A DNA stretch of 44,488 nucleotides from Escherichia phage vB_EcoD_Opt212. Positions 12 through 44,488 of the stretch are shown piece after piece; within the stretch, counting starts at the first letter, position 1; every line of letters begins with the position of its first letter. The stretch lies in the sequence record NC_073055.1, one strand, 5' to 3'. A model generated the notes under the pieces. That model worked only from the letters and a program-made list of their open reading frames with translations. It had not been told where the DNA came from and did not search any database. The position numbers were made by a program, and so were the translations under genes.

Positions 12-1397
12 TTAGTAGAAATCTACGGTAGGAACAACGGCGATTGGACGAATCACAGGGAACAGGTGCGCAATTGGATAACCCGCGGCATCGTTCATGT
101 GGTCCACACCGGCGGTTTTATCCGGCTCGCCTTTCTTCAGGTCGTAAACCTGCTGTTCCAGACATTTCGCTAGTGTAGGGCATTTATCCAGGTTGACAAA
201 ATACTGGCGCACGCCCTTCGAGTTGCACATCATCGTATTCATCGCGATCAATCGGTCTTTCACAGGCGGGTTAACGCTGTCGTATTCCACCTCGAAGCCC
301 GCATCTTCCAGTTGCGCGATATCGGACGACGAAGCGTTAACCGTTTTGCGGGATTTGCCGCTGCTATCCGGGTACACGACAACACGACCGGCAGCGCAAT
401 GATCGGGGTAGCGCTCCTCGATCGCTTCAATCATAGCCGGGGTATCAAACAGGTCCACGAATTCATCCACGGCGTGAATCTCGTCGCGGAACTCCTTGTT
501 CTCGGTGGTACGCTGCCGTCTTACATACACGACCGCCGCCATTTTCGTGACGTTAAAGTCCATACCGATAATCAGCGTGTCTTCCGGTTGTACTTCTTCG
601 GTGCTGGCGTTCTCCTCGCGATTAAACATCTTGTATACCGCGCCCGATGTAAGGTTGACAAACAGGCCGTTCAGGTACGCGTCAATAAGGTTAGCCGGGT
701 ACTGACTGCGCAGCGTGTCGATAAAGTCTGCCGGTAAATGGTGGTTGTCGGTGGTCTTCGCCCGGATCAGGCGCTTTTGGCTATCCTTCTCCACCTCGAA
801 AATCTGGTACATCGCCCGGTAGCCTTCCGGGGTGGACACTATGACGAACTGGCGTACAAAGCCTGCACGCAGACGACCGAGCAATTTGTGATACGCCGCC
901 AGCGCAACGTCTTGCTTCGTGGTATCGAATTCATCGGCAACAATCCACGCGGCGTTAACCCCGATAAGGCGGGTGTAGTTCTCCATCGACTCACAGATAA
1001 CGCGGGTCCATTTGCCTTTCACAAGCACGTTATAGATCTTGTCCTGCTTATTGAACTTCCACCGGAAGCCTGCCTCGTCGAATGCCTTCTCCAGTTCCGG
1101 ATACATGATCTTAACCAGGAGGGGAATAGTCGGTTCTGTAACGATGCCGTCATGACCGGGGTTCAGGGTTAAAAGCTGGATGACCTTACGCGCAGCGACC
1201 CACGACTTTCCACCGCCGAAGCCGGAACACAGGCCGAGGATTTTAGTCTTTGTGTCGCGCAGTAGTTCAACCTGGTGCGGCAAGCAATCAGGCTGATACA
1301 GGCGGACGGCCTGCGCAACGCGTGTCGGTCGCGGCGGTCGATTTCGCTTTGCGATCGCCCGTTCGAGGGCGCGGTGTTCTGCCGCATAGTTACGCAT
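12..1397 (-). CDS. terminase large subunit
   Basis: 461 aa; N-terminal P-loop (LGLCSGFGGGKSW) typical of TerL ATPase; overlaps the upstream TerS-like ORF by 1 nt. Confidence 0.85.
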   Translation of the reverse strand: MRNYAAEHRALERAIAKRNRPPRPTRVAQAVRLYQPDCLPHQVELLRDTKTKILGLCSGFGGGKSWVAARKVIQLLTLNPGHDGIVTEPTIPLLVKIMYPELEKAFDEAGFRWKFNKQDKIYNVLVKGKWTRVICESMENYTRLIGVNAAWIVADEFDTTKQDVALAAYHKLLGRLRAGFVRQFVIVSTPEGYRAMYQIFEVEKDSQKRLIRAKTTDNHHLPADFIDTLRSQYPANLIDAYLNGLFVNLTSGAVYKMFNREENASTEEVQPEDTLIIGMDFNVTKMAAVVYVRRQRTTENKEFRDEIHAVDEFVDLFDTPAMIEAIEERYPDHCAAGRVVVYPDSSGKSRKTVNASSSDIAQLEDAGFEVEYDSVNPPVKDRLIAMNTMMCNSKGVRQYFVNLDKCPTLAKCLEQQVYDLKKGEPDKTAGVDHMNDAAGYPIAHLFPVIRPIAVVPTVDFY

Positions 1398-1969
1398 TAT
1401 TCACCCTGGCCTTTGCCGGAAGGTTCGACAACTACGTCGCCGTTATCATCTTCGTCGTCATCCAGCGGTACATCGTCGCGGACGCCGTGGTTCGCTTTAA
1501 GCAGGAATGTAGCGAAGCCTGCCGCGATGGTCACACCACCGGCTTCCATCAGGAAAGTTTTCTGCAACTCCATAGCGTCCGCCATCGCCTCGGCGAACTC
1601 CTCATGCGCACGCGCCCAGCGATACAGGCAAGCTACGCCCACGCCGATTTCCGCGGCAAATCGACCGAAGGTTGGCATTTTGTTGCGAGGGATTACTTGC
1701 GCAGCGCCTTTATCGGAGTAGTTTACCTGCCAGGCGTCGGCGTCGGCAAAATAGCGGCGAAGCTGGTCACAGTAAACGGATCGGTAGTCCGTAGGGCGTC
1801 CGCATTTACCGCCTTTGCGGCGCTTTCCGTACTCGATTTCAGGTCCGAGATTGGTGTGCTCGGTTTGCTCTCCTGGTTTACGGCGCGGGGTAACTGCGAC
1901 TCGTCCGTCCAGTTTGGCGCGACGGCCCTTAACTTTAATTTCTGCCATGATATAAGCCCTTTTGTTCAT
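1397..1969 (-). CDS. putative terminase small subunit
   Basis: 190 aa, immediately upstream of and overlapping TerL; acidic C-terminal tail; start uncertain (alternative ATG 21 nt downstream). Confidence 0.55.
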   Translation of the reverse strand: MNKRAYIMAEIKVKGRRAKLDGRVAVTPRRKPGEQTEHTNLGPEIEYGKRRKGGKCGRPTDYRSVYCDQLRRYFADADAWQVNYSDKGAAQVIPRNKMPTFGRFAAEIGVGVACLYRWARAHEEFAEAMADAMELQKTFLMEAGGVTIAAGFATFLLKANHGVRDDVPLDDDEDDNGDVVVEPSGKGQGE

Positions 1970-2077
1970 ATGCGCCGACCATCGGCAACATAGGAGACGG
2001 CCCTGCCATCTAAGGGGATTATAACAGGCACAAAAAAGCCCACCAAATCGGCAGGCTGGGAGGCTTATGGGTTGCCG

Positions 2078-3281: not shown

Positions 3282-3455
3282 CTATGAGTTGTCTTGCTGT
3301 TTAAATTCCGCCATCACGCGACGGAACTCACCCATAACTTTTCCTTGCTCTTTCTTTGTCAGGAACGAAAGACCCCGGAAGAATGACGCCTCCATTTGGG
3401 AGGCCCGCGGTCGTTCCGCCATAGGGCGGGAATCGCGTTGCGGTTTAAATGCCAT
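3282..3455 (-). CDS. small hypothetical protein (57 aa)
   Basis: ATG preceded by GAGGTGA; not in ORF track (below length cutoff); translated by hand. Confidence 0.3.
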   Translation of the reverse strand: MAFKPQRDSRPMAERPRASQMEASFFRGLSFLTKKEQGKVMGEFRRVMAEFKQQDNS

Positions 3456-3596
3456 AAGTCACCTCACAAATTACCATTCCAATAAATGCCGCGGCGGACC
3501 AGATTGCCAATACCCAAATATCATTACGTGCCATAGTGTAATACTCCTCTTGTTGATTGGTCGCAGTATGGCGCCTATGTTGGTTGCAAGTCAAGC

Positions 3597-3624
3597 AATA
3601 AAAAGCCCGGAATTAACCGGGCTT
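3597..3624 (-). terminator. rho-independent terminator after lysis cassette
   Basis: stem GCCCGG/CCGGGC followed by U-run on minus strand, directly after stop at 3631. Confidence 0.5.
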
Positions 3625-3630
3625 GGCAGT

Positions 3631-3792
3631 TTACACTTCTGGATCTTCCGGCGGTGGCGGACTCGGCAGCTTCGCGTCAAATACGCCAGCATGACTGATA
3701 GTGTCCGCGATAATGGCGCGAGCGCCTGGGTCTTCGGTTTTAGCCAGCGCGGCGAGCGCGTCCGCATTATGATCAAGAATACTTTTTAACAT
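3631..3792 (-). CDS. small hypothetical protein (53 aa)
   Basis: ATG with GGAGACAC RBS 17 nt after endolysin stop; Pro-rich C-terminus; same frame as track ORF 3631..4029. Confidence 0.35.
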   Translation of the reverse strand: MLKSILDHNADALAALAKTEDPGARAIIADTISHAGVFDAKLPSPPPPEDPEV

Positions 3793-3808
3793 ACTGTGTC
3801 TCCTCGTA

Positions 3809-4300
3809 TTATGCGGCGTTTCGCCCGATTTTCTCGGCAACGTCCCACTGCTTACCATCAAATAGTGCCTGCCTGCCGATTGCACGACGGACAAGCCCCT
3901 TGAGCACTGCCCCGCCTTGCTTGCGGAATTGTGGCAGCGTAGCACGGACCTTTGCCCAGTCACCCAGGCGGATCGCATCGTCGAAGTCTCCGGCGACGTC
4001 GTCCGGCATGATCGGACCAGGACCGGCATTGATAACCAGGTCCACCAGCGCGTCGAATTGCGCCTGGTTGATGCTCGGGTGTGCGTACTTGTTTACCCAG
4101 TTCTCGGCATACGCCACGTCGCGCTTGAGTAGCTCCAGTGCTTCCGCACGGGTAATGCTCCGCGGCGGATTAGTGCCGGTGTGACCATAGCCCCAGGTAT
4201 ACAGGCCGCGGGCCTGCTCTTTCTTAGTCGCGAAATACGGCACTGGGCTGAATTGCTCCCATGCTGCCGTAAATCTCAGACCGTTGTCACTGAATCGCAT
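3809..4300 (-). CDS. endolysin (GH24 lysozyme-like)
   Basis: 163 aa; GYGHTG and surrounding motifs typical of phage T4/lambda-type lysozyme; downstream of two membrane proteins. Confidence 0.8.
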   Translation of the reverse strand: MRFSDNGLRFTAAWEQFSPVPYFATKKEQARGLYTWGYGHTGTNPPRSITRAEALELLKRDVAYAENWVNKYAHPSINQAQFDALVDLVINAGPGPIMPDDVAGDFDDAIRLGDWAKVRATLPQFRKQGGAVLKGLVRRAIGRQALFDGKQWDVAEKIGRNAA

Positions 4301-4532
4301 GTTTTACCCCATTCAAAACAGCATTACGCAGTGTGCGCAATGCAAACAGCCAGATTAACGCGGTCCAGGTGGTGTCAGATACGTCTCCGGTTTGCAACAG
4401 TCCGATAATGCAGACCATCGCCGTAAGCAGATATAACACCCGACCGAAGAAGCCATCCTGGACGGACGGCGCATACACGTTAAACAGGGACGAAGCCCCT
4501 ATGATAACAAACAACAGGACGGAGATAATCAT
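4287..4532 (-). CDS. holin/antiholin-like membrane protein
   Basis: 81 aa, two hydrophobic segments, overlaps endolysin start. Confidence 0.5.
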   Translation of the reverse strand: MIISVLLFVIIGASSLFNVYAPSVQDGFFGRVLYLLTAMVCIIGLLQTGDVSDTTWTALIWLFALRTLRNAVLNGVKHAIQ

Positions 4533-4819
4533 TTTGCGCCACCCGGAAGTCGGAACGACTCAATAGTCTCCCTGATCCGGGCGGCTATTGGCATCCAGAA
4601 GATTGCAGTTACGAAGCCCAAACCGGCGACAGTGCGCTCGCCAGATAAGCCAGCCCACTCGGCGATAGCTGGCGCACCAAATATGGCACACAGGAAGCCA
4701 ACTACGACATATAAAACGAAGTTCAACGGCCCTTTCGTTGCCTCGCCATGAATGCGTGCGCCTACGAAGCCACCAGCAAGACACGCAAGGGCGAATAACC
4801 ACTCGTTTAGCTTATCCAT
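4529..4819 (-). CDS. holin-like membrane protein
   Basis: 96 aa, multiple predicted TM segments, ATGA overlap with next gene. Confidence 0.5.
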   Translation of the reverse strand: MDKLNEWLFALACLAGGFVGARIHGEATKGPLNFVLYVVVGFLCAIFGAPAIAEWAGLSGERTVAGLGFVTAIFWMPIAARIRETIESFRLPGGAK

Positions 4820-4871
4820 AAAAAAGTCCCAGTAAGTTTTAGCTCACTGGGACTATATCACGCTTGCATAA

Positions 4872-22309: not shown

Positions 22310-22343
22310 AAAAAGGGGCCGCATGGCCCCTTCTATTTATTTC
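22310..22343. terminator. bidirectional terminator between convergent blocks
   Basis: AGGGGCC-GCAT-GGCCCCT hairpin flanked by A-run and T-rich tail. Confidence 0.55.
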
Positions 22344-24502
22344 TTCAACGCCGCGATCTCGGCCTTCAAATCCTCCACCTGCTTATTGAGATATTGAACA
22401 CACCCCATCAAGTCCATTACGATCGGGTTAACGTCGATGGATGGGCGGTCCGTCATCTTCTCCCCGATCTTGTTGCCGTCTTCGTCGAGAATATCCTCGA
22501 TCGGGAACTCGTGGTGCTTAACGTACTGCGGCGCAATTAACTCCGCTTCTTCGGCGATAATACCGAAGCGCTGGCGGGCCTGCTCATCATCCTTATACAC
22601 GAAGTTAACAAGGCGCTGGCTGTTAATGCGGTCCATAGCTTCGCTTGCGTCCGCATCGGCTATATCTTTCTTATACTCGCGGCCGGATGTGCCTTGCAGC
22701 GCGATAGTCCCCGATGCGGTAGTCGGGAAGTTAAGCATAATTTCGCCGGTACGGTTCCCATCCTTACGTCGCATAAACAGGCGAAAATATCGAGTGCCGC
22801 TCTTTTCTAGTGCCGGTTCGAAGAACGTCCTACCGCCTACGACGTCGTTCGGCACGGTTTCGCCTACGGTGTAGTACGGTTCGAATGCAAATTGCAGGTA
22901 AGACCCGCGGCTTACTGCCAGGCTACCAACGACATCTGACCCTGAACTGTTCACCGTAAACTTGCCCGGCAAGGTCATCTCGCCTTTGGTGTTAAAGTCG
23001 ATGCCTGAACTCTGCGCCGTCTCCAGGTTAGTGATCGCCAGGCGGGCGTAAGTCTCACCGTCGATATTCGCACGGACGCGCAGCTTTGCTTCCGAGTGTA
23101 AAGAAGTGCCAACACGATATTCAGACACAATGCTTCCGCCGTCTGCCGTAGTGCCCGCTGGCGGTTTAGTGGCGTCGCCGTTGATTACCGACCACGACGT
23201 ATTAGCGGCGGCGAATCCGCCTGACGCTCGAATAACCCACACGCCCATGAAGTTATTGGGGCGCAACTCCGATACGGTCCGGCCATAGATCGCGTTGACC
23301 TTCGAGGCGTCCATGTTAATGATGCCGTAGGAGACTGCGCCGTTACCAACAGGTAGGTTGCCTGGCGACCGATATTGCGAAGCCGCTCCACCAGCCCCGT
23401 GGAACGCGCCACTTTCATGGTTGATAATACTTGCGGCCCCGCCGCCGTGTAATTCGACGCGGCCTGTGATGTTAGGTGCTCCTGATTCGTAGATATACCC
23501 ATCGTTGCCACTTTGCCCGCCGTCGCCCCTGCCGAACAAGCCGAATATGGACCCAGGCTGAACGCCGTTACGGTCCGGCACTCGGAAGGTAGTTGTGCCG
23601 TCACCCGTAGAATACTTGCCGCGCTGATTTGGGTTAGCCAGCCAGGTATCGTCACTAATTGGCGACAGCATTTGCGCATACGCCCACAACTCAGGCCAAT
23701 CAGCGCGGTTAAGAAGTTGCCCGTCGGATACGACTTCATAAGGCTGGATATATGCGCGGCTGTCCCGTAAATGGAAATCACCTACGCCATAGTTCATGAC
23801 GCCGTTCATTGTAGGGCCAACCGTGCCCACGTTGATAAGGTTCTGCACCCAGCGCTTTGTCGCGGCGTCGTAGTCACCTACAGGGTCGCCCGCCAATGGC
23901 GTTGCCCCGTCTGGTCGAACGTTAAGCCAGGCTTGCGGTTTGTCGGTGAGTCCTGCCAGGTTGCCGGATTTGGTTAGCAGGTTATCCGCGTTAACGCTTT
24001 GCGCCCACTCCTCGGCCTGATCGCGGAATCCCTGCGCTGCGGATTTCGATGCTTCGGCTTGCGCTGCGAGGTCGCGCATCTCAACGGGGTCTACGTTCTT
24101 AAGCAATTCCGACAGATATCCCCATGACATGCCCTGCATAACCTGCCCGTTAGGTAACGTCACTGTGATTTCTTCAGCGTCGCCGAAGATTGCACGCCAG
24201 TTGTTTTCATCTGCAATCATCAAGCGCAATGCTTTTTGCGCCTGTACGGTAACGCCCATCGTTGCCAGTGACATGGTGTCGCGCTTAACACCATCCCAAG
24301 CAAGGCCGGTTGCCGTTGGGCCGTCGAACGGCAACACCAGCGTAAGCGCCGTGTTACTTTCGATTGATGCGATCGCCACTGTGTAAGGCACTTGTCCTAC
24401 CACCAGCGTTAAGAAGTCGCCAGCTTTAAACGCGGTAAACGTTGTGCCGACTCCTACTACCGCCGTGCTATTGTTCGTTACGGATAGCGTACCCGCTGCC
24501 AT
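22337..24502 (-). CDS. side tail fibre with C-terminal intramolecular chaperone (S74-like) domain
   Basis: 721 aa; Gly-rich central region; C-terminal GTSGREYKKDI...RFGIIAEEAELIAP pattern. Confidence 0.7.
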   Translation of the reverse strand: MAAGTLSVTNNSTAVVGVGTTFTAFKAGDFLTLVVGQVPYTVAIASIESNTALTLVLPFDGPTATGLAWDGVKRDTMSLATMGVTVQAQKALRLMIADENNWRAIFGDAEEITVTLPNGQVMQGMSWGYLSELLKNVDPVEMRDLAAQAEASKSAAQGFRDQAEEWAQSVNADNLLTKSGNLAGLTDKPQAWLNVRPDGATPLAGDPVGDYDAATKRWVQNLINVGTVGPTMNGVMNYGVGDFHLRDSRAYIQPYEVVSDGQLLNRADWPELWAYAQMLSPISDDTWLANPNQRGKYSTGDGTTTFRVPDRNGVQPGSIFGLFGRGDGGQSGNDGYIYESGAPNITGRVELHGGGAASIINHESGAFHGAGGAASQYRSPGNLPVGNGAVSYGIINMDASKVNAIYGRTVSELRPNNFMGVWVIRASGGFAAANTSWSVINGDATKPPAGTTADGGSIVSEYRVGTSLHSEAKLRVRANIDGETYARLAITNLETAQSSGIDFNTKGEMTLPGKFTVNSSGSDVVGSLAVSRGSYLQFAFEPYYTVGETVPNDVVGGRTFFEPALEKSGTRYFRLFMRRKDGNRTGEIMLNFPTTASGTIALQGTSGREYKKDIADADASEAMDRINSQRLVNFVYKDDEQARQRFGIIAEEAELIAPQYVKHHEFPIEDILDEDGNKIGEKMTDRPSIDVNPIVMDLMGCVQYLNKQVEDLKAEIAALKK

Positions 24503-24522
24503 AGCTAAATCCTCGTAATTGG

Positions 24523-24550
24523 TTGCAATCCTGGCTGAGCGGTGTAATAC
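24523..24550 (+). promoter_or_regulatory. candidate promoter (TTGCAA-N16-TAATAC) for lipoprotein gene
   Basis: overlaps ATTGGTTGCAA motif in divergent region. Confidence 0.3.
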
Positions 24551-24581
24551 TAAAACTCAACCAAATATAGGGGATGATACC

Positions 24582-24800
24582 ATGAAAACTTTAATTATGA
24601 TTTGTGCGGTTCTTTTGTCCGGTTGCGCCGACATGCCCGCTAAAGTCTGCGACGCCACATACCAGAATAGCGGCATGGATTATGTGGTCCCTGTGTATGG
24701 TGTTGCGGACTTCTCCGGGCATAAAATGCTAAGGGCGGGTTATCCGTTTAGCTTCCAGTACGTGTCGGTAGACCATTTCAAAAACACCACCTGCGAATAA
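24582..24800 (+). CDS. lipoprotein (candidate Cor/Llp-like superinfection exclusion protein)
   Basis: 72 aa; signal peptide with lipobox LLSGC; opposite strand, embedded between tail fibre and tail genes. Confidence 0.55.
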   Translation: MKTLIMICAVLLSGCADMPAKVCDATYQNSGMDYVVPVYGVADFSGHKMLRAGYPFSFQYVSVDHFKNTTCE

Positions 24801-24820: not shown

Positions 24821-25495
24821 TCAATCATAATTGGCCGTGTTAATCGCCATAATCGCGTTGCCGTTGTTAGTATACCCCACCACACCCCCCGTGGCGTTCC
24901 CCGACGACGCTGCCGATATACGCGTTCGCGACCCATCAAATCTGGCCCCCGTGTACGCCGTTACCGATATTACTTGCGGCTGGCCCTGCACAAAAAACCG
25001 GATCAGCGTAGACCCCAATATGCCCGGAGCGACGGCGTAGCTGCCATTTAGCGTCTGGTCAATGTTAATCCCCCCGTTAGCGCCTGGCGATCCGACGGTA
25101 ACTAAATCGCTTAGTACGCGACTCTCATTAGTAAGCACTAGCTTCCCCGTCTTATCCCAAATAGCGAAGCCCCACCGCGGAAGGGTCTGTGGGAATATGG
25201 CAAAGATGTAAGCCGTCATCGTGAAGCCTTGCCCGAATGGATTGCTGGCGCTCACCTTCACCACATTACCAACGCGAGAAGACCCTACGACGGTCGGCCG
25301 GGCGGTGTGCGTAGTTTTCACAAACGCTATTGCAGGGTAGTCACCACCCAAATTAATATCGGCAGCCGCCGACTGCGCAGTGCCGTTAGCCGAAGACCCA
25401 ACAACCACACGGCGGAATAGACAAAACGGCGTCGATTCTGGTGTGATAAACGGGTTGCCGTTTGGTAAGTCAATCAACGCGCCGTAATTAGCCAT
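24821..25495 (-). CDS. hypothetical tail-associated protein
   Basis: 224 aa; Gly/Ser/Thr-rich; coupled downstream of gpJ-like gene. Confidence 0.5.
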   Translation of the reverse strand: MANYGALIDLPNGNPFITPESTPFCLFRRVVVGSSANGTAQSAAADINLGGDYPAIAFVKTTHTARPTVVGSSRVGNVVKVSASNPFGQGFTMTAYIFAIFPQTLPRWGFAIWDKTGKLVLTNESRVLSDLVTVGSPGANGGINIDQTLNGSYAVAPGILGSTLIRFFVQGQPQVISVTAYTGARFDGSRTRISAASSGNATGGVVGYTNNGNAIMAINTANYD

Positions 25496-39816: not shown

Positions 39817-40518
39817 CTACTCGTCGCCCATCTTAGCGATGATTTCACCAGCCTGTTTCGTAAGGTCAGTGATACCGAAGCTGTGGCCCATCGTGATTTT
39901 CGACTTCACATCTTCGACAACCTGCGTCGGTTTGCTAGGCGCGCCGCCTGCTGGCGTGCCAGCCAGGACGGACGCAAAATCGGCGTTATTACGGAACTCT
40001 TTTTCAAGTTCTTCCATAGTCAGCGCGGACGGTTTGCCATCCTGCAAGACACGCACTTTCAAGCTGCCGTCTTCGCCGTCTTCCAGCGTCAGGCGGTCCA
40101 TTACGTGGCGTTGCATGATGCCCGCATTCTTACCGAACAGCTTCGACGCCAGGTCTTTGGCAGCGCTGCCGATGGTTAGATCGTGGATCTGCTTGCGGTA
40201 GGCTTCGATTTTTCCCGATGTGTCTGCTTCGTGTTTCGCAAACTTATCTTTCCAGGACTTGTCGATCGCTTCGAGGTCGCCATTTTTGCGCGCGGCGGCT
40301 TCCTCTTTCTCTTTCGCAAGGCGCTCAGCTTCGGCGCGGCGTTCAGCTTCTGCTTTCTTCTCGCTCACCAGCTTCGCGTTGTTGTCTTTCAGACCCTTGA
40401 TTTCCGCCTGTACTTCTTCTGCGGTCATGAACGTTGATTTATACCCGTCGCCATCGGCAACAAAAAGCGCCTTCATACCTTCCGGCAACGCGTCATATTC
40501 TGCTTTAGTAAGTTTCAT
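39817..40518 (-). CDS. scaffolding protein
   Basis: 233 aa from ATG with AGGGGGA RBS; charged coiled-coil-like sequence (AEAERRAEAERLAKEKEEAAARK); directly upstream of capsid gene. Confidence 0.65.
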   Translation of the reverse strand: MKLTKAEYDALPEGMKALFVADGDGYKSTFMTAEEVQAEIKGLKDNNAKLVSEKKAEAERRAEAERLAKEKEEAAARKNGDLEAIDKSWKDKFAKHEADTSGKIEAYRKQIHDLTIGSAAKDLASKLFGKNAGIMQRHVMDRLTLEDGEDGSLKVRVLQDGKPSALTMEELEKEFRNNADFASVLAGTPAGGAPSKPTQVVEDVKSKITMGHSFGITDLTKQAGEIIAKMGDE

Positions 40519-40608
40519 GCTATCCCCCTGGGATTGTGGCAGAGCAGGCCACCCGCTCGACTTCACGCTTCTAATATTATCAGCGATAAAAATAATCGCA
40601 AAATTCGC

Positions 40609-40667: not shown

Positions 40668-41183
40668 ATGAGACTGACAAAAGACATTAAAAACCAGATT
40701 CTGGCTAACATCCTGCGCGACCACGAAATCGCGACCGAAGCCAAATCAATCATGATGGACTCTCGAAATCTGGCGTACGCCATTACGATGGACTGTATGC
40801 CGGAAGGCATTCATTCGTTCGCCGAGCTACGTGAGCGCATTGCAGCAATCGGCGGTGACCCGTCGCAGATGTACGGCGTCTGTGTGTACACCAACAAGGC
40901 GACGTATAGACATGACGCCGACAGCCCATATGGTGTAGGCAGCGTTTACGACGCCACTTTCGAAATCAACGCAGGCGGAAACGTCCGTACCGTGTCATTG
41001 AGCGGAGACGGACACCGAGTCCGAGTATATCGCGGATACGGGGAGTATAAATACATGAATAAACTGTCTCCCGATCTCGGCGATATTGTGCCTGGGTATG
41101 AGGAAATTTTGTTAGCGTCAGTGTGCGAAGTCGATGACGACGGGAAAGCGCTGCCGATATATATATGCCACGCGGTCGTATAG
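40668..41183 (+). CDS. hypothetical protein (opposite-strand island gene 1)
   Basis: 171 aa; GAGGAC RBS; no recognisable motifs. Confidence 0.55.
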   Translation: MRLTKDIKNQILANILRDHEIATEAKSIMMDSRNLAYAITMDCMPEGIHSFAELRERIAAIGGDPSQMYGVCVYTNKATYRHDADSPYGVGSVYDATFEINAGGNVRTVSLSGDGHRVRVYRGYGEYKYMNKLSPDLGDIVPGYEEILLASVCEVDDDGKALPIYICHAVV

Positions 41184-41434
41184 ACTACCCGGCGGACCAT
41201 GATTTCTGTAAGCGCCTGGACCGTAACGACAAGGCCCGCCGTGAGTTGCGTGCTAAGTATGACGCGTTCAAACTAACTGTTACCGGCGTGCTGGATATGC
41301 ACAATACCGATAAGAAGCTGATCAAGGCGTGGCCTGAAGTGGAACAGTTCATTCCTTACCCGGGCAAGCCGAAGTCCACGGCGGTGGCGCTGGACGTGAA
41401 GACGTTAAACGAGATTTGCGGTATTCCGCGCTAA
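41165..41434 (+). CDS. hypothetical protein (opposite-strand island gene 2)
   Basis: 89 aa; overlaps gene 1 by 19 nt; start uncertain. Confidence 0.4.
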   Translation: MPRGRIDYPADHDFCKRLDRNDKARRELRAKYDAFKLTVTGVLDMHNTDKKLIKAWPEVEQFIPYPGKPKSTAVALDVKTLNEICGIPR

Positions 41435-41435
41435 T

Positions 41436-41460
41436 AAAAGGGGCCATTACGGCCCCCGAA
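41436..41460. terminator. bidirectional hairpin between island and spanin genes
   Basis: GGGGCC-AUUAC-GGCCCC; o-spanin stop lies within it. Confidence 0.4.
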
Positions 41461-41686
41461 TTATTTGCTGCAACTCCAGGACCTGCGCCCTCAGCTTCGC
41501 CCCGCATTCCATATTTTTCACGTCAATCATCAAATCTTCGTCGGGGTCCGCGGACGGGTTATCGAACTTGCACGGCGGTCGCAGTGCCGACTCCGTTAGC
41601 GGCATCAACGGCGCTTTGCTTGATCCGCACGCGCTCAGCATCAAAACTGCAATCAGGACGGTTAGGACGCGTAACATATTTAACAA
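41447..41686 (-). CDS. o-spanin (outer membrane lipoprotein, Rz1-like)
   Basis: 79 aa; signal peptide with lipobox LSAC; Pro-rich; start embedded in i-spanin-like ORF. Confidence 0.6.
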   Translation of the reverse strand: MLNMLRVLTVLIAVLMLSACGSSKAPLMPLTESALRPPCKFDNPSADPDEDLMIDVKNMECGAKLRAQVLELQQIIRGP

Positions 41687-41918
41687 CCTCTTTCGTGATA
41701 GTCCGGTATTCTACGTCGCGGGCTTGTTCGGCCTGCACGGAGCGCTCAATAACTTTAGTTTGCTGCCGTTGGGCATCTGCTTGCGCTTCTTGCGCCGCCT
41801 CCGCCGCTACGCCAGCGCGATAGGAGTCACCTAGCCAGAATCCTACCACCAGACCGATAACCAGCCCAATCGCTGCATACTTAATCACGCCATAACCCCC
41901 GGTTTTTAAGCTGTGCAA
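41559..41918 (-). CDS. i-spanin (Rz-like)
   Basis: N-terminal TM (IKYAAIGLVIGLVVGFWLG) then charged helical region; track start is TTG, alternative GTG at 41888 with GGGGG RBS. Confidence 0.55.
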   Translation of the reverse strand: MHSLKTGGYGVIKYAAIGLVIGLVVGFWLGDSYRAGVAAEAAQEAQADAQRQQTKVIERSVQAEQARDVEYRTITKEVVKYVTRPNRPDCSFDAERVRIKQSAVDAANGVGTATAVQVR

Positions 41919-42984
41919 TAGTCATCAGTTCGCCAGAATCGGTAAACATCTTCGGCACTTTCACGCCGCGCATAATCTGGTCGGCGCGTTGCACTCCATA
42001 TAATTCTTCCAGGATATGGCGCGGCTGGCGCTGCACCCATGAGAAGAAATCAGTCTGCGCGTCTACCTGCTCACTCAGCAATCTGCCTGCGTCAGCCTTC
42101 AGTGCCGGACGCTTACCACTGGGCCAATCTTCCATACCTTTGACTTTCCACGTCTCCGTCGAACGGCAGCAATAATGCAGCTTGCCCGGACCAGCGCCAT
42201 ATTGTGACCCAGCCACCATTTTCCCGCCGCGTTTTCCTTTGGTGTCGGGAGTAACATCAACCGGATAAAACAGGCGATCGCGTAGCTGGCACATGGGAGA
42301 AGTATGCGTGTCCAATGTAGCCAACCATTGGCGACCTTCGAGAATATCGTCATTAGCTTTTACCATTAATTCGCGGGCGGTCGCCGCATAGTGGTTGACC
42401 GCGGACTTAACAACGCTTGAGATTGCTTGCGCACTACGACCGCCGAGCGCGCGCCTCACGTCCGCGATAATTTCCATCGTTGGCTTGCCCTGGATGAATC
42501 CGGCGCGCACCTGATTCCCGATCTGCGTCCTGGTCCACTCGGAAAGGGAATCAGGCCATTGCATCATAGTATTACCCTGGAACGGGTTTTTCATTGCCGT
42601 CGCTGCAATCTGCGCGCCGGTAACAACGCCAACTACTTCAACAGCGGGTACGGCGACAGCGGGCTGGATCGCTGCCGTTAGTGTGTCCGCGAGATAATCA
42701 GCCTCGGTGTCGGCGAACTCCTGAAGGCTCTCCGCCAGCACTTTAAACTCGGCGCGCAGTTCCGTTTTGACGGTCTTGTCGAGTTGCGTTAACAGTGTGG
42801 TAAGTGCCTTGTTGCTCATGGACTTTTTGCCATCAAGTAACTCGGTCAGCTTACCAAGTAAAGTGGGCCGGAACTTCTCCCACATAGCCAGCACCCTCCG
42901 CGCCTGATCATTGCTCAGGCGCTGGGTGAAGATGTGACGGCGAATCATTCGATCCGCCAAATATTGATTAACTGTCTTCGCCAT
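41881..42984 (-). CDS. head morphogenesis protein (Mu F / SPP1 gp7-like)
   Basis: 367 aa; directly downstream of portal, overlapping by 17 nt. Confidence 0.65.
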   Translation of the reverse strand: MAKTVNQYLADRMIRRHIFTQRLSNDQARRVLAMWEKFRPTLLGKLTELLDGKKSMSNKALTTLLTQLDKTVKTELRAEFKVLAESLQEFADTEADYLADTLTAAIQPAVAVPAVEVVGVVTGAQIAATAMKNPFQGNTMMQWPDSLSEWTRTQIGNQVRAGFIQGKPTMEIIADVRRALGGRSAQAISSVVKSAVNHYAATARELMVKANDDILEGRQWLATLDTHTSPMCQLRDRLFYPVDVTPDTKGKRGGKMVAGSQYGAGPGKLHYCCRSTETWKVKGMEDWPSGKRPALKADAGRLLSEQVDAQTDFFSWVQRQPRHILEELYGVQRADQIMRGVKVPKMFTDSGELMTIAQLKNRGLWRD

Positions 42985-44488
42985 TGTCCGCTACCTTGTC
43001 CGGGTCTTCTTCGGTAGATTCTACCGCATCAGGGGACATTTGAGGCAATGGATTCTGATTTCGCAATTCGTCTTCCACCTGCTCGACGGTTTGCGAGTCG
43101 TCTATGACGCCCTGCGCCATCATCCACTTGATGAAGTCAGCCAGGCGGACCGTACCAGTCTGCACCCCCGACATCATCGCGGTCATAAGCTGAGCATCAA
43201 CCGTGATTTCGGTGTAGAACTTATTCAGCGTCACACGCTGGTCGGCGGTGTCGCCCGTGAATAGCTGGACGATTTGCAGCGCACGGTTGAAAGCCTTCTC
43301 AACGTTACCGGCGATAAGCGACAGGATACTGTTATCAGTCTGCGCATCGTAGGCCGCCTCGGTTGCCGTCTTAGGTGCGGTCCCCTTCTCGACAAGGGCC
43401 GCGCCAAGTTTAGCCATTTGCAATTCGCGACGCTCACACAGCGCAACAGACAAGTTGCGCTCCTCGGCCTGAATCAGTTTAGCGTCCATGTTCTGGCCCA
43501 GGATAACGCCCTTAGTCGCACCGAGGGCAATGCCGCCCTTCAGGTTCTTGTCAGCCCATGATTGGGTCAATCCCGTCGCAACGAGGGTAGGTTGGCCCAC
43601 GATGTGCGCAATCTCGGCGACGTCCGCTTCGGCGTTGTAGTGCTTAATGTTGATGGACGCGATATCCGCCAGCGGAGCGGCGTCAGGCGTTGCGTTGTTG
43701 TCCACCGCACCACACCAGCAAAACGGAAGTTGTGTAAGCGCATTACCGGAGGCATCCACCAGCGGCACCAGGTCGGTGCGGGTGAATCCACGCGGCAAAT
43801 CCATTTGCACCTCGGACGTGTCCGCGTTGTAGTACCAGCGGCGGGCGTGTGCCGCACCATTAATCATGCGAAGCTCGGTCCAGATTGTTACTTCGTGGTT
43901 TGCGAAGTCGTCCGGGTCTTCGGTGCTGATTTCGTCCGTTTCCTTCAGCACAATTAGCGTATCGACGCCGTGGGTCTGCCGCCAGTTGATGATCTGTTCT
44001 GCCGTGTACAGGCGTATAAGCGGGCGGTGTGACGCCATCTCGGCGGCTGTCTGCGGAACTACGTTACCCAGCTCATCAAAGTTAGCCTGGCGGTCGTAGT
44101 CCACCATAAAGCCCGCACGTCCTGATTGCAGCACTTCCGACATAGCACCGCGCAGGAGTTGCGGCAGAGGCATACCGCTGCCGTCTACGTCGTCAATCAG
44201 GTCAGCCATCGCCCCGGAAAGGTCCAGACTTACCGGTTTAGCAAAGGCAACGCCTAACAGCGCGTTAAGTGTGCGGGCGGTGGCGTTCAGGAATACAGCG
44301 CGTTGCTTGTACGCCTTATACCGCGCCCGTGCTTTCGGGTCAGTATTGTCGCCACTGGCGGGATGAGGCAGGTACAATGGGCCGCACGCCTTCACGGCGC
44401 GCTCCCCTGCTACGCAGTCACGGATCATTTTCCACTCTGGCGCGATGCGCGCATAGAGCGGGTGCTGGTTGTCAACGTTAACGGTCAT
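42968..44488 (-). CDS. portal protein
   Basis: 506 aa; start codon at window edge; acidic C-terminus; follows TerL if genome is circularly permuted. Confidence 0.7.
   Translation of the reverse strand: MTVNVDNQHPLYARIAPEWKMIRDCVAGERAVKACGPLYLPHPASGDNTDPKARARYKAYKQRAVFLNATARTLNALLGVAFAKPVSLDLSGAMADLIDDVDGSGMPLPQLLRGAMSEVLQSGRAGFMVDYDRQANFDELGNVVPQTAAEMASHRPLIRLYTAEQIINWRQTHGVDTLIVLKETDEISTEDPDDFANHEVTIWTELRMINGAAHARRWYYNADTSEVQMDLPRGFTRTDLVPLVDASGNALTQLPFCWCGAVDNNATPDAAPLADIASINIKHYNAEADVAEIAHIVGQPTLVATGLTQSWADKNLKGGIALGATKGVILGQNMDAKLIQAEERNLSVALCERRELQMAKLGAALVEKGTAPKTATEAAYDAQTDNSILSLIAGNVEKAFNRALQIVQLFTGDTADQRVTLNKFYTEITVDAQLMTAMMSGVQTGTVRLADFIKWMMAQGVIDDSQTVEQVEDELRNQNPLPQMSPDAVESTEEDPDKVADNGEDS

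Follow-up and report, generated by a model that had tools for sequence, protein, structure and literature searches.

A probable spanin gene pair in the head-gene module of the Dhillonvirus vB_EcoD_Opt212, apart from its holin and endolysin genes

Two small overlapping genes that follow the portal and head-morphogenesis genes of Escherichia phage vB_EcoD_Opt212 look like the inner-membrane subunit (i-spanin) and the outer-membrane subunit (o-spanin) of a spanin, and the two holin genes and the endolysin gene lie elsewhere on the genome. The locus raises two questions: whether this pair is a spanin pair, as a first-pass annotation of the DNA had proposed, and whether its separation from the other lysis genes implies, as was also proposed, a separate regulation of outer-membrane disruption.

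The window, that is, the whole stretch of 44,488 nucleotides that was analysed (NC_073055.1), is the complete genome of a Dhillonvirus, an HK578-like E. coli siphophage. Because the stop of the large terminase subunit gene (TerL) at position 12 and the start of the portal gene at 44488 leave a junction gap of only 11 nt (10 nt in phage Bas84), the window is complete and circularly permuted. The circular map on which the holin-holin-endolysin genes (3809..4819) had been placed about 7 kb from the pair is therefore legitimate, and on it 6408 nt separate the i-spanin start from the endolysin stop. The 801 bases around the spanin locus matched 152 phage records at 80-97% identity, and nearly all of these are Dhillonvirus phages of Escherichia. 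At the whole-genome level JLBYU37 is closest, with 96.9% identity along the full length of the window's 3' half. Among the matching records, OQ221563.1 “Acinetobacter phage NJ01” (44,487 bp, host listed as A. baumannii) is 95.5% identical to the spanin-locus region, and its host assignment looks doubtful, since the genus is found elsewhere on Escherichia and Shigella. Other matching records carry Campylobacter, Salmonella or Sodalis labels. The genes around the locus are the following.

1397..1969, minus strand: small terminase subunit gene (TerS), by relatives' annotation, upstream of the portal gene over the circular junction.
12..1397, minus strand: TerL gene, by relatives' annotation, likewise upstream of the portal gene over the junction.
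42968..44488, minus strand: portal protein gene, by relatives' annotation and tblastn synteny.
41881..42984, minus strand: head-morphogenesis (minor head) protein gene (phrog_241, 3e-117; relatives' annotation), adjoining the spanin genes upstream.
41559..41888, minus strand: candidate i-spanin gene, 109 aa, GTG start, N-terminal transmembrane segment at about residues 4-20 (phrog_2536, 4.3e-35).
41447..41677, minus strand: candidate o-spanin gene, 76 aa, lipobox LSAC with Cys17 (phrog_5672, 1e-26; phrog_1267, 5.8e-13).
41559..41677, minus strand: overlap of the two frames, 119 nt, with the o-spanin in the +1 frame (“overlapped” architecture).
40668..41434, plus strand: Nmad5 gene (PF18757 on both halves), between the spanin and scaffold genes and convergent with the spanin genes.
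39817..40521, minus strand: head scaffolding protein gene (phrog_206, 4e-51), the next minus-strand gene past the spanins.

A 2-nt AT insertion (41157-41158) in an (AT)n run breaks the Nmad5 gene into two ORFs, 40668..41183 and 41165..41434; the run reads CCGATATATATATGCC in the window and CCGATATATAAGCC or CCGATATATCTCCC in relatives with a single 765-nt ORF. Either a sequencing error or a natural knockout could account for this frameshift. The Dhillonvirus Nmad5 is reported to be non-essential, and a K-to-E mutation in it is reported to give escape from the Tmn defence (PMC11846954).

The mechanical ORF of the i-spanin, 41559..41918 on the minus strand, comprises 119 aa from a TTG at 41918, at which the first-pass annotation had ended the locus. 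This start was rejected: it is replaced by TCG in one related locus (L017), and a stop codon follows the TTG in another (L020). The GTG at 41888 is kept in all 16 related loci, and relatives annotate a 330-nt gene. It lies within the final codons of the head-morphogenesis gene (CGTGATTAA) and overlaps its stop, which places the pair at the end of the portal/head-morphogenesis unit as had been described, and a GGGGG run is found 7 nt 5' of it. The membrane and lipoprotein signals of both proteins were sought with simple rules, namely hydropathy and a regular expression. The hydrophobic maximum of the i-spanin falls on residues 1-19 (KD19 = 2.03) with Lys3 on its N side, and the remainder is charged. 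The AlphaFold2 model from a single sequence has low confidence (pLDDT 59.5) and was used for secondary structure only; it gives helices at 3-72 and 84-97 joined by a linker which carries the sole cysteine, Cys80. By hydropathy and this low-confidence model the product is a small protein with a single N-terminal transmembrane segment and a largely helical periplasmic part, in agreement with its earlier description as a membrane segment plus a charged helix. Cys80 and the core ITKEVVKYV..C are invariant, also against phages K1H, SE2 and VLCpiS11a, and Cys80 is so across five genera-level sequences; the invariant core of the alignment is E-V-x-K-Y ... R-x-x-C-x-F ... R-V.

The o-spanin frame (mechanical ORF 41447..41686, minus strand) begins with the signal MLRVLTVLIAVLMLSAC, and its N-terminus, MLRVLTVLIAVLM-LSAC-GSS, contains the signal peptidase II lipobox with Cys17. 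Since the +2 residue is Gly rather than Asp, sorting to the outer membrane is expected from this rule-based check. The lipobox is L[ST]AC in 15 of the 16 relatives and the less usual MSAC in one (L018), and every cysteine is kept. The lipobox and the overlapping frame of the first-pass annotation are confirmed; the mature protein of 60 aa contains 7 Pro (11.7%), so “Pro-rich” applies only in a modest sense. It also contains two further cysteines (Cys36 and Cys59 of the precursor) and a C-terminal amphipathic stretch, and it has in common with K1H, SE2 and VLCpiS11a the motif P-P-C-K ... D-E-D-L-x-x-D-V-x-N-x-x-C. Thus, periplasmic cysteines suited to intermolecular disulfides are present on both sides, Cys80 in the i-spanin and two conserved ones in the mature o-spanin. 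A six-frame scan of the 44.5 kb genome for a lipobox after an uncharged hydrophobic segment gave two sites only, the o-spanin and a Cor lipoprotein gene, and therefore the o-spanin signal is not a chance feature. The latter gene (24519..24800, plus strand; lipobox LSGC; phrog_1119, 6.9e-26) encodes a Cor-type superinfection-exclusion lipoprotein and is flanked by a tail-fibre gene (22337..24502, minus strand) and a membrane-associated protein gene (24821..25495, minus strand). In the o-spanin only the signal peptide forms a hydrophobic maximum, and the C-terminus is AKLRAQVLELQQIIRGP; because there are two separate subunits and the o-spanin has no C-terminal transmembrane segment, a unimolecular spanin of the T1 gp11 type is rejected.

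The family matches point in the same direction. All three PHROG families matched, phrog_2536 by the i-spanin and phrog_5672 and phrog_1267 by the o-spanin, are annotated as “Rz-like spanin”. Kongari et al. 2018 (PMC6139136) placed phages EK99P-1, EP23, HK578, JL1, SSL-2009a and SO-1 in the “Jersey” overlapped i-/o-spanin families, and the window is 92-96% nucleotide-identical to the loci of four of these members (EK99P-1, HK578, EP23 and SSL-2009a), so that both subunits match the Jersey family. In that work the i-spanins of the “EP23 to SO-1” subfamily are described as shorter and as having two alpha helices, and two of the o-spanin cysteines as constant; the predicted helix-linker-helix of the window agrees with this description. 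The BASEL collection annotated spanins using the SpaninDB of Kongari 2018, and Bas84, KarlBarth and GeorgBuechner carry “i-spanin” and “o-spanin” labels at the same position; EK99P-1 and others are also labelled as spanins (i-/o-spanin or Rz-like; RefSeq, BASEL), and in many GenBank records of Dhillonvirus both genes are still “hypothetical protein”. The more general databases gave little: Pfam returned zero families at E <= 0.1 for either protein, including those of lambda Rz (Phage_lysis) and Rz1; in NCBIfam the o-spanin reached 12.9 bits (E = 0.091) against P2 LysC (NF038368, P2_Rz1), under the 27-bit cut-off; and a PDB sequence search with both proteins gave nothing meaningful. A link to the lambda or P2 families is therefore undetectable at the sequence level.

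Taken together, the transmembrane segment, the lipobox, the 119-nt overlap of adjacent genes and the PHROG spanin matches of both products bear out the first-pass reading as an Rz/Rz1-like two-component pair, and the two proteins are very probably the subunits of a Jersey-family overlapped spanin which works by the standard spanin mechanism. For the family as a whole the function is deduced from architecture and from analogy with the spanins of lambda, P2, T4 and T7. In the expected mechanism the N-terminal transmembrane segment would hold the i-spanin in the inner membrane, with the helical domain extending into the periplasm, and signal peptidase II would cleave the o-spanin, which would carry its lipid on Cys17 and be delivered to the outer membrane. 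The C-terminal regions of the two would bind each other, giving a complex that spans the periplasm, and disulfides at the conserved cysteines would stabilise the complex, the homodimers being disulfide-linked. Such complexes would accumulate in late infection, with the peptidoglycan mesh restraining them. Once the holins have triggered and the endolysin (3809..4300) has broken down the wall, they would fuse the inner and outer membranes, and the virions would be released.

The second question concerns regulation, for which the lysis cassette and the hairpins along the minus strand have to be considered.

4825..4854, minus strand: hairpin of 12 bp with a T-run (-24.1 kcal/mol, z = -6.5), identical in Bas84.
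4529..4819 and 4287..4532, minus strand: holin genes (phrog_2359, 6.2e-32; phrog_2508, 4e-27).
3809..4300, minus strand: endolysin gene, phage lysozyme (PF00959, 2.5e-20; phrog_7, 1.3e-36), without an N-terminal hydrophobic SAR segment.
3565..3624, minus strand: predicted hairpin with a T-run (3624..3603; -16.5 kcal/mol, z = -2.8), then TTGACT-18-CATACT (3594..3565).
2018..2057, minus strand: predicted hairpin with a T-run (2057..2037; z = -0.7), then the extended -10-like TGTTATAAT (2026..2018).
41439..41457, between genes on both strands: terminator-like hairpin GGGGCC-GTAAT-GGCCCC with a minus-strand T-run (-21.4 kcal/mol, z = -2.6).

Read along the minus strand, the order is hairpin 4854..4825, holin, holin, endolysin, a small ORF, hairpin 3624..3603, a small ORF, an exonuclease-like gene, hairpin 2057..2037, TerS, TerL, portal, head morphogenesis, i-spanin, o-spanin and hairpin 41457..41439. 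The pair thus comes directly 3' of the head-morphogenesis gene and, on this strand, 6.4 kb past the lysis cassette. The T-run of hairpin 4854..4825 ends 5 nt before the first holin ATG, which leaves a promoter no room, and so holin expression would need read-through. The 3' arm of this hairpin covers the only purine-rich, SD-like GGGA, and the hairpin may limit translation of the first holin. Hairpin 3624..3603 stands downstream of the lysis cassette, and its core is kept in Bas84. TGTTATAAT is found 49 nt before the TerS start, and the element 2018..2057, 96% conserved in Bas84, is the putative start of the unit which ends with the spanins; its hairpin folds no better than shuffled sequences. 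The elements 2018..2057 and 3565..3624 resemble terminator-promoter junctions delimiting late units. The hairpin at 41439..41457, between the convergent spanin and Nmad5 genes, is kept in all 16 Dhillonvirus loci and has an analogue in VLCpiS11a. The o-spanin stop (TAA or TGA in relatives) lies in its loop and the last codons, R-G-P, in its 5' arm, so that both the protein code and the RNA fold put constraints on this arm. In addition, the spanin genes come last in the terminase-portal-head unit and the i-spanin start shares nucleotides with the stop codon before it, so they are most likely co-transcribed with that unit and translationally coupled to it.

This arrangement suggests, from sequence elements, that the lysis cassette and the spanins belong to two separate late transcription units. 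A literature search for Dhillonvirus transcriptomics gave nothing usable, and the units therefore stay predictions. From here it would be a further step to regard the spanins as a separately regulated lysis arm by which outer-membrane disruption is controlled independently of holin and endolysin, and this step is improbable. It is favoured by the three hairpins 4854..4825, 3624..3603 and 2057..2037, which bracket the cassette and part it from TerS, the last two being followed by promoter-like sequences, by the conserved terminator closing the unit directly 3' of the o-spanin, and by a gap of 280-510 nt 5' of the i-spanin in the Guernseyvirinae which could hold a promoter of its own. These elements, however, are all consensus matches, terminator and promoter motif counts over the whole genome are within shuffle expectation, and the z-score of hairpin 2057..2037 is poor; moreover, both units are among the late genes on one strand. 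The spanin model holds that the complexes build up inactive in the peptidoglycan mesh and become active only once the endolysin has cleared it (Kongari 2018, PMC6139136), which ties timing to peptidoglycan removal and not to spanin expression. Spanins gated in this way need no timing of their own, and outer-membrane disruption would be timed by holin and endolysin wherever the spanin genes lie. The split location therefore implies no independent control point, and phage T4 has its spanin genes likewise far from t and e (Kongari 2018, PMC6139136, Fig. 8 legend). Thus, of the earlier statement that the split implies separate regulation, the hint of separate transcription units survives as a prediction and the implication itself is not established. 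A more elaborate proposal is a two-channel control of lysis as a functional design, in which spanin dosage would be tied to capsid-assembly expression and the holin controlled separately. The spanins could then be the last, translationally coupled genes of a low-copy terminase-portal-head unit closed by the conserved terminator, and the holin could be controlled by read-through or antitermination or by an occluded ribosome-binding site, with the cassette insulated between hairpins. This design is also unlikely.

The preferred reading, a spanin pair of the ordinary mechanism, has next to be set against a role outside lysis, in which the small membrane proteins would serve head assembly or packaging, for example by membrane anchoring, or superinfection exclusion. 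The position of the pair speaks for such a role to some extent. A tblastn search with the i-spanin gave 616 phage records, of which 346 were Salmonella phages, plus Kagunavirus and Klebsiella phages. K1H (Kagunavirus), SE2 (Jerseyvirus) and Klebsiella phage VLCpiS11a carry the homologous pair in the interval from the head-morphogenesis gene to the scaffold gene, as Dhillonvirus does, and hence the position is kept in four genera; the order TerL, portal, head morphogenesis, spanins, scaffold and major capsid protein is collinear with these three Guernseyvirinae at 25-41% protein identity. Furthermore, the curated Rz/Rz1 models are unmatched, and a published experimental test of Jersey-family spanins was not found in the literature. 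On the other side, what defines spanins is the combination seen here: a type II protein of the inner membrane, a lipoprotein of the outer membrane encoded in an overlapping frame, and conserved cysteines in the periplasmic parts. The host is Gram-negative and the genome has holins and a soluble endolysin, yet other spanin candidates are absent from it: the small ORFs near the endolysin (3591..3776 and 3445..3594), in which a second spanin or a u-spanin was sought, have neither a lipobox nor a PHROG match, and so the pair at 41447..41888 is the only spanin candidate of the genome. In addition, distant i-spanin homologues with the ITKEVVKY..C core occur in ordinary lysis contexts, in one locus (L024) after an endolysin and a small membrane protein, with the o-spanin embedded, and in another (L025) after a holin-like gene. 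A role outside lysis is therefore very unlikely. The head-module position is accordingly not a property of the protein family but a trait of the Dhillonvirus and Guernseyvirinae lineages, inherited and common to both. In L024 the holin-like gene and the i-spanin are parted by an HNH-endonuclease-like ORF (3348..3890, minus) in opposite orientation, which recalls the homing-endonuclease insertions at T5-like spanin loci discussed by Kongari et al.

Both frames of the pair are under purifying selection, as shown by their intactness and by the pattern of variation over codon positions. The window was compared with 16 related loci of 79-96% nucleotide identity, and both spanin frames are intact in the 17 genomes with zero indels over 442 coding positions. 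In the part coding for the i-spanin only, 46 of 70 third codon positions vary and 12 of 70 second positions; in the part coding for the o-spanin only, the counts in the o-frame are 22/37 for third positions and 5/36 for second positions. Within the overlap, variation is lowest (5/39) at the sites that are second position for the i-spanin and first position for the o-spanin. The antisense ORFs 41416..41823 and 41568..41834 (plus strand) were rejected as genes because the variation over codon positions fits the minus-strand frames instead. The notion that the lipoprotein frame in the overlap arose by chance and that the i-spanin-like gene alone is genuine, to which several antisense or alternative-frame ORFs of similar size in the same stretch lend some colour, has practically no standing against a 76-aa frame whose lipobox and three cysteines persist in all 16 relatives down to 79% nucleotide identity, which varies past the overlap as a coding frame does, which has an HMM match, and of which SE2, K1H and VLCpiS11a have homologous lipoprotein ORFs.

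The spanin pair and its head-module position are already known, and the window is another isolate-level variant. Synteny with related phages gives the same pair position across Dhillonvirus, K1H, SE2 and VLCpiS11a; the arrangement is thus not peculiar to this genome but lineage-wide, and the genetic separation of the spanins from the holin/antiholin and endolysin genes was stated explicitly in the genome announcement of phage Schulenberg. Beyond correct annotation it matters little: automated callers should seek spanins outside the lysis cassette in Dhillonvirus and Guernseyvirinae, and in phage engineering the moving or deleting of a “lysis module” must allow for spanin genes 6.4 kb off which overlap the head-morphogenesis stop codon. 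The insulated cassette, if true, would be a modest example of lysis genes spread over late transcription units.

Among known systems, the short Jersey subfamily (EP23, HK578, EK99P-1, JL1, SSL-2009a and SO-1) has the same overlap, helix-linker-helix, o-spanin cysteine pair and genomic position, and the window differs from it in nothing of substance. The Guernseyvirinae (SE2, K1H, Schulenberg and VLCpiS11a) have a homologous pair (i-spanin identity 33-40%) at the same location with holin and endolysin elsewhere, but their i-spanins are longer (127-128 aa against 109 aa), and instead of a start-stop overlap they have an intergenic gap 5' of the i-spanin, plus a Hoc-like decoration gene in K1H and SE2. 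Unannotated gaps of about 280-510 nt are found there in K1H (L004, 4330..4838), SE2 (L005, 5458..5776) and VLCpiS11a (L006, 3857..4141). Also unlike the window, K1H and SE2 have no annotated Nmad5 gene between the spanins and the scaffold; in VLCpiS11a this interval comprises about 550 nt without annotation. In SE2 an opposite-strand “amidase” gene (L005, 3127..3777) lies between the portal and head-morphogenesis genes.

The Rz/Rz1 pair of lambda is alike in consisting of a type II inner-membrane helical protein and an outer-membrane lipoprotein, with the o-gene in the +1 frame of the i-gene; it forms intermolecular disulfides, and the pair of the window is expected to work alike. However, a Pfam-level sequence match is undetectable, the lambda genes are embedded and those of the window overlapped, and the window pair has no penta-proline stretch. 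Whereas the lambda spanin genes end the S-R-Rz cassette, those of the window come 6.4 kb further downstream, past terminase, portal and head morphogenesis. T7 sets a precedent for spanin genes apart from holin and endolysin: its genes 18.5/18.7 sit in the packaging module, flanked by the two terminase genes. Their products belong to a sequence family unrelated to that of the window, and the pair is embedded. Finally, PseT.3/PseT.2 of T4 are of an unrelated sequence family and of “separated” architecture, and they too are a precedent for spanin genes situated away from the holin and endolysin genes.
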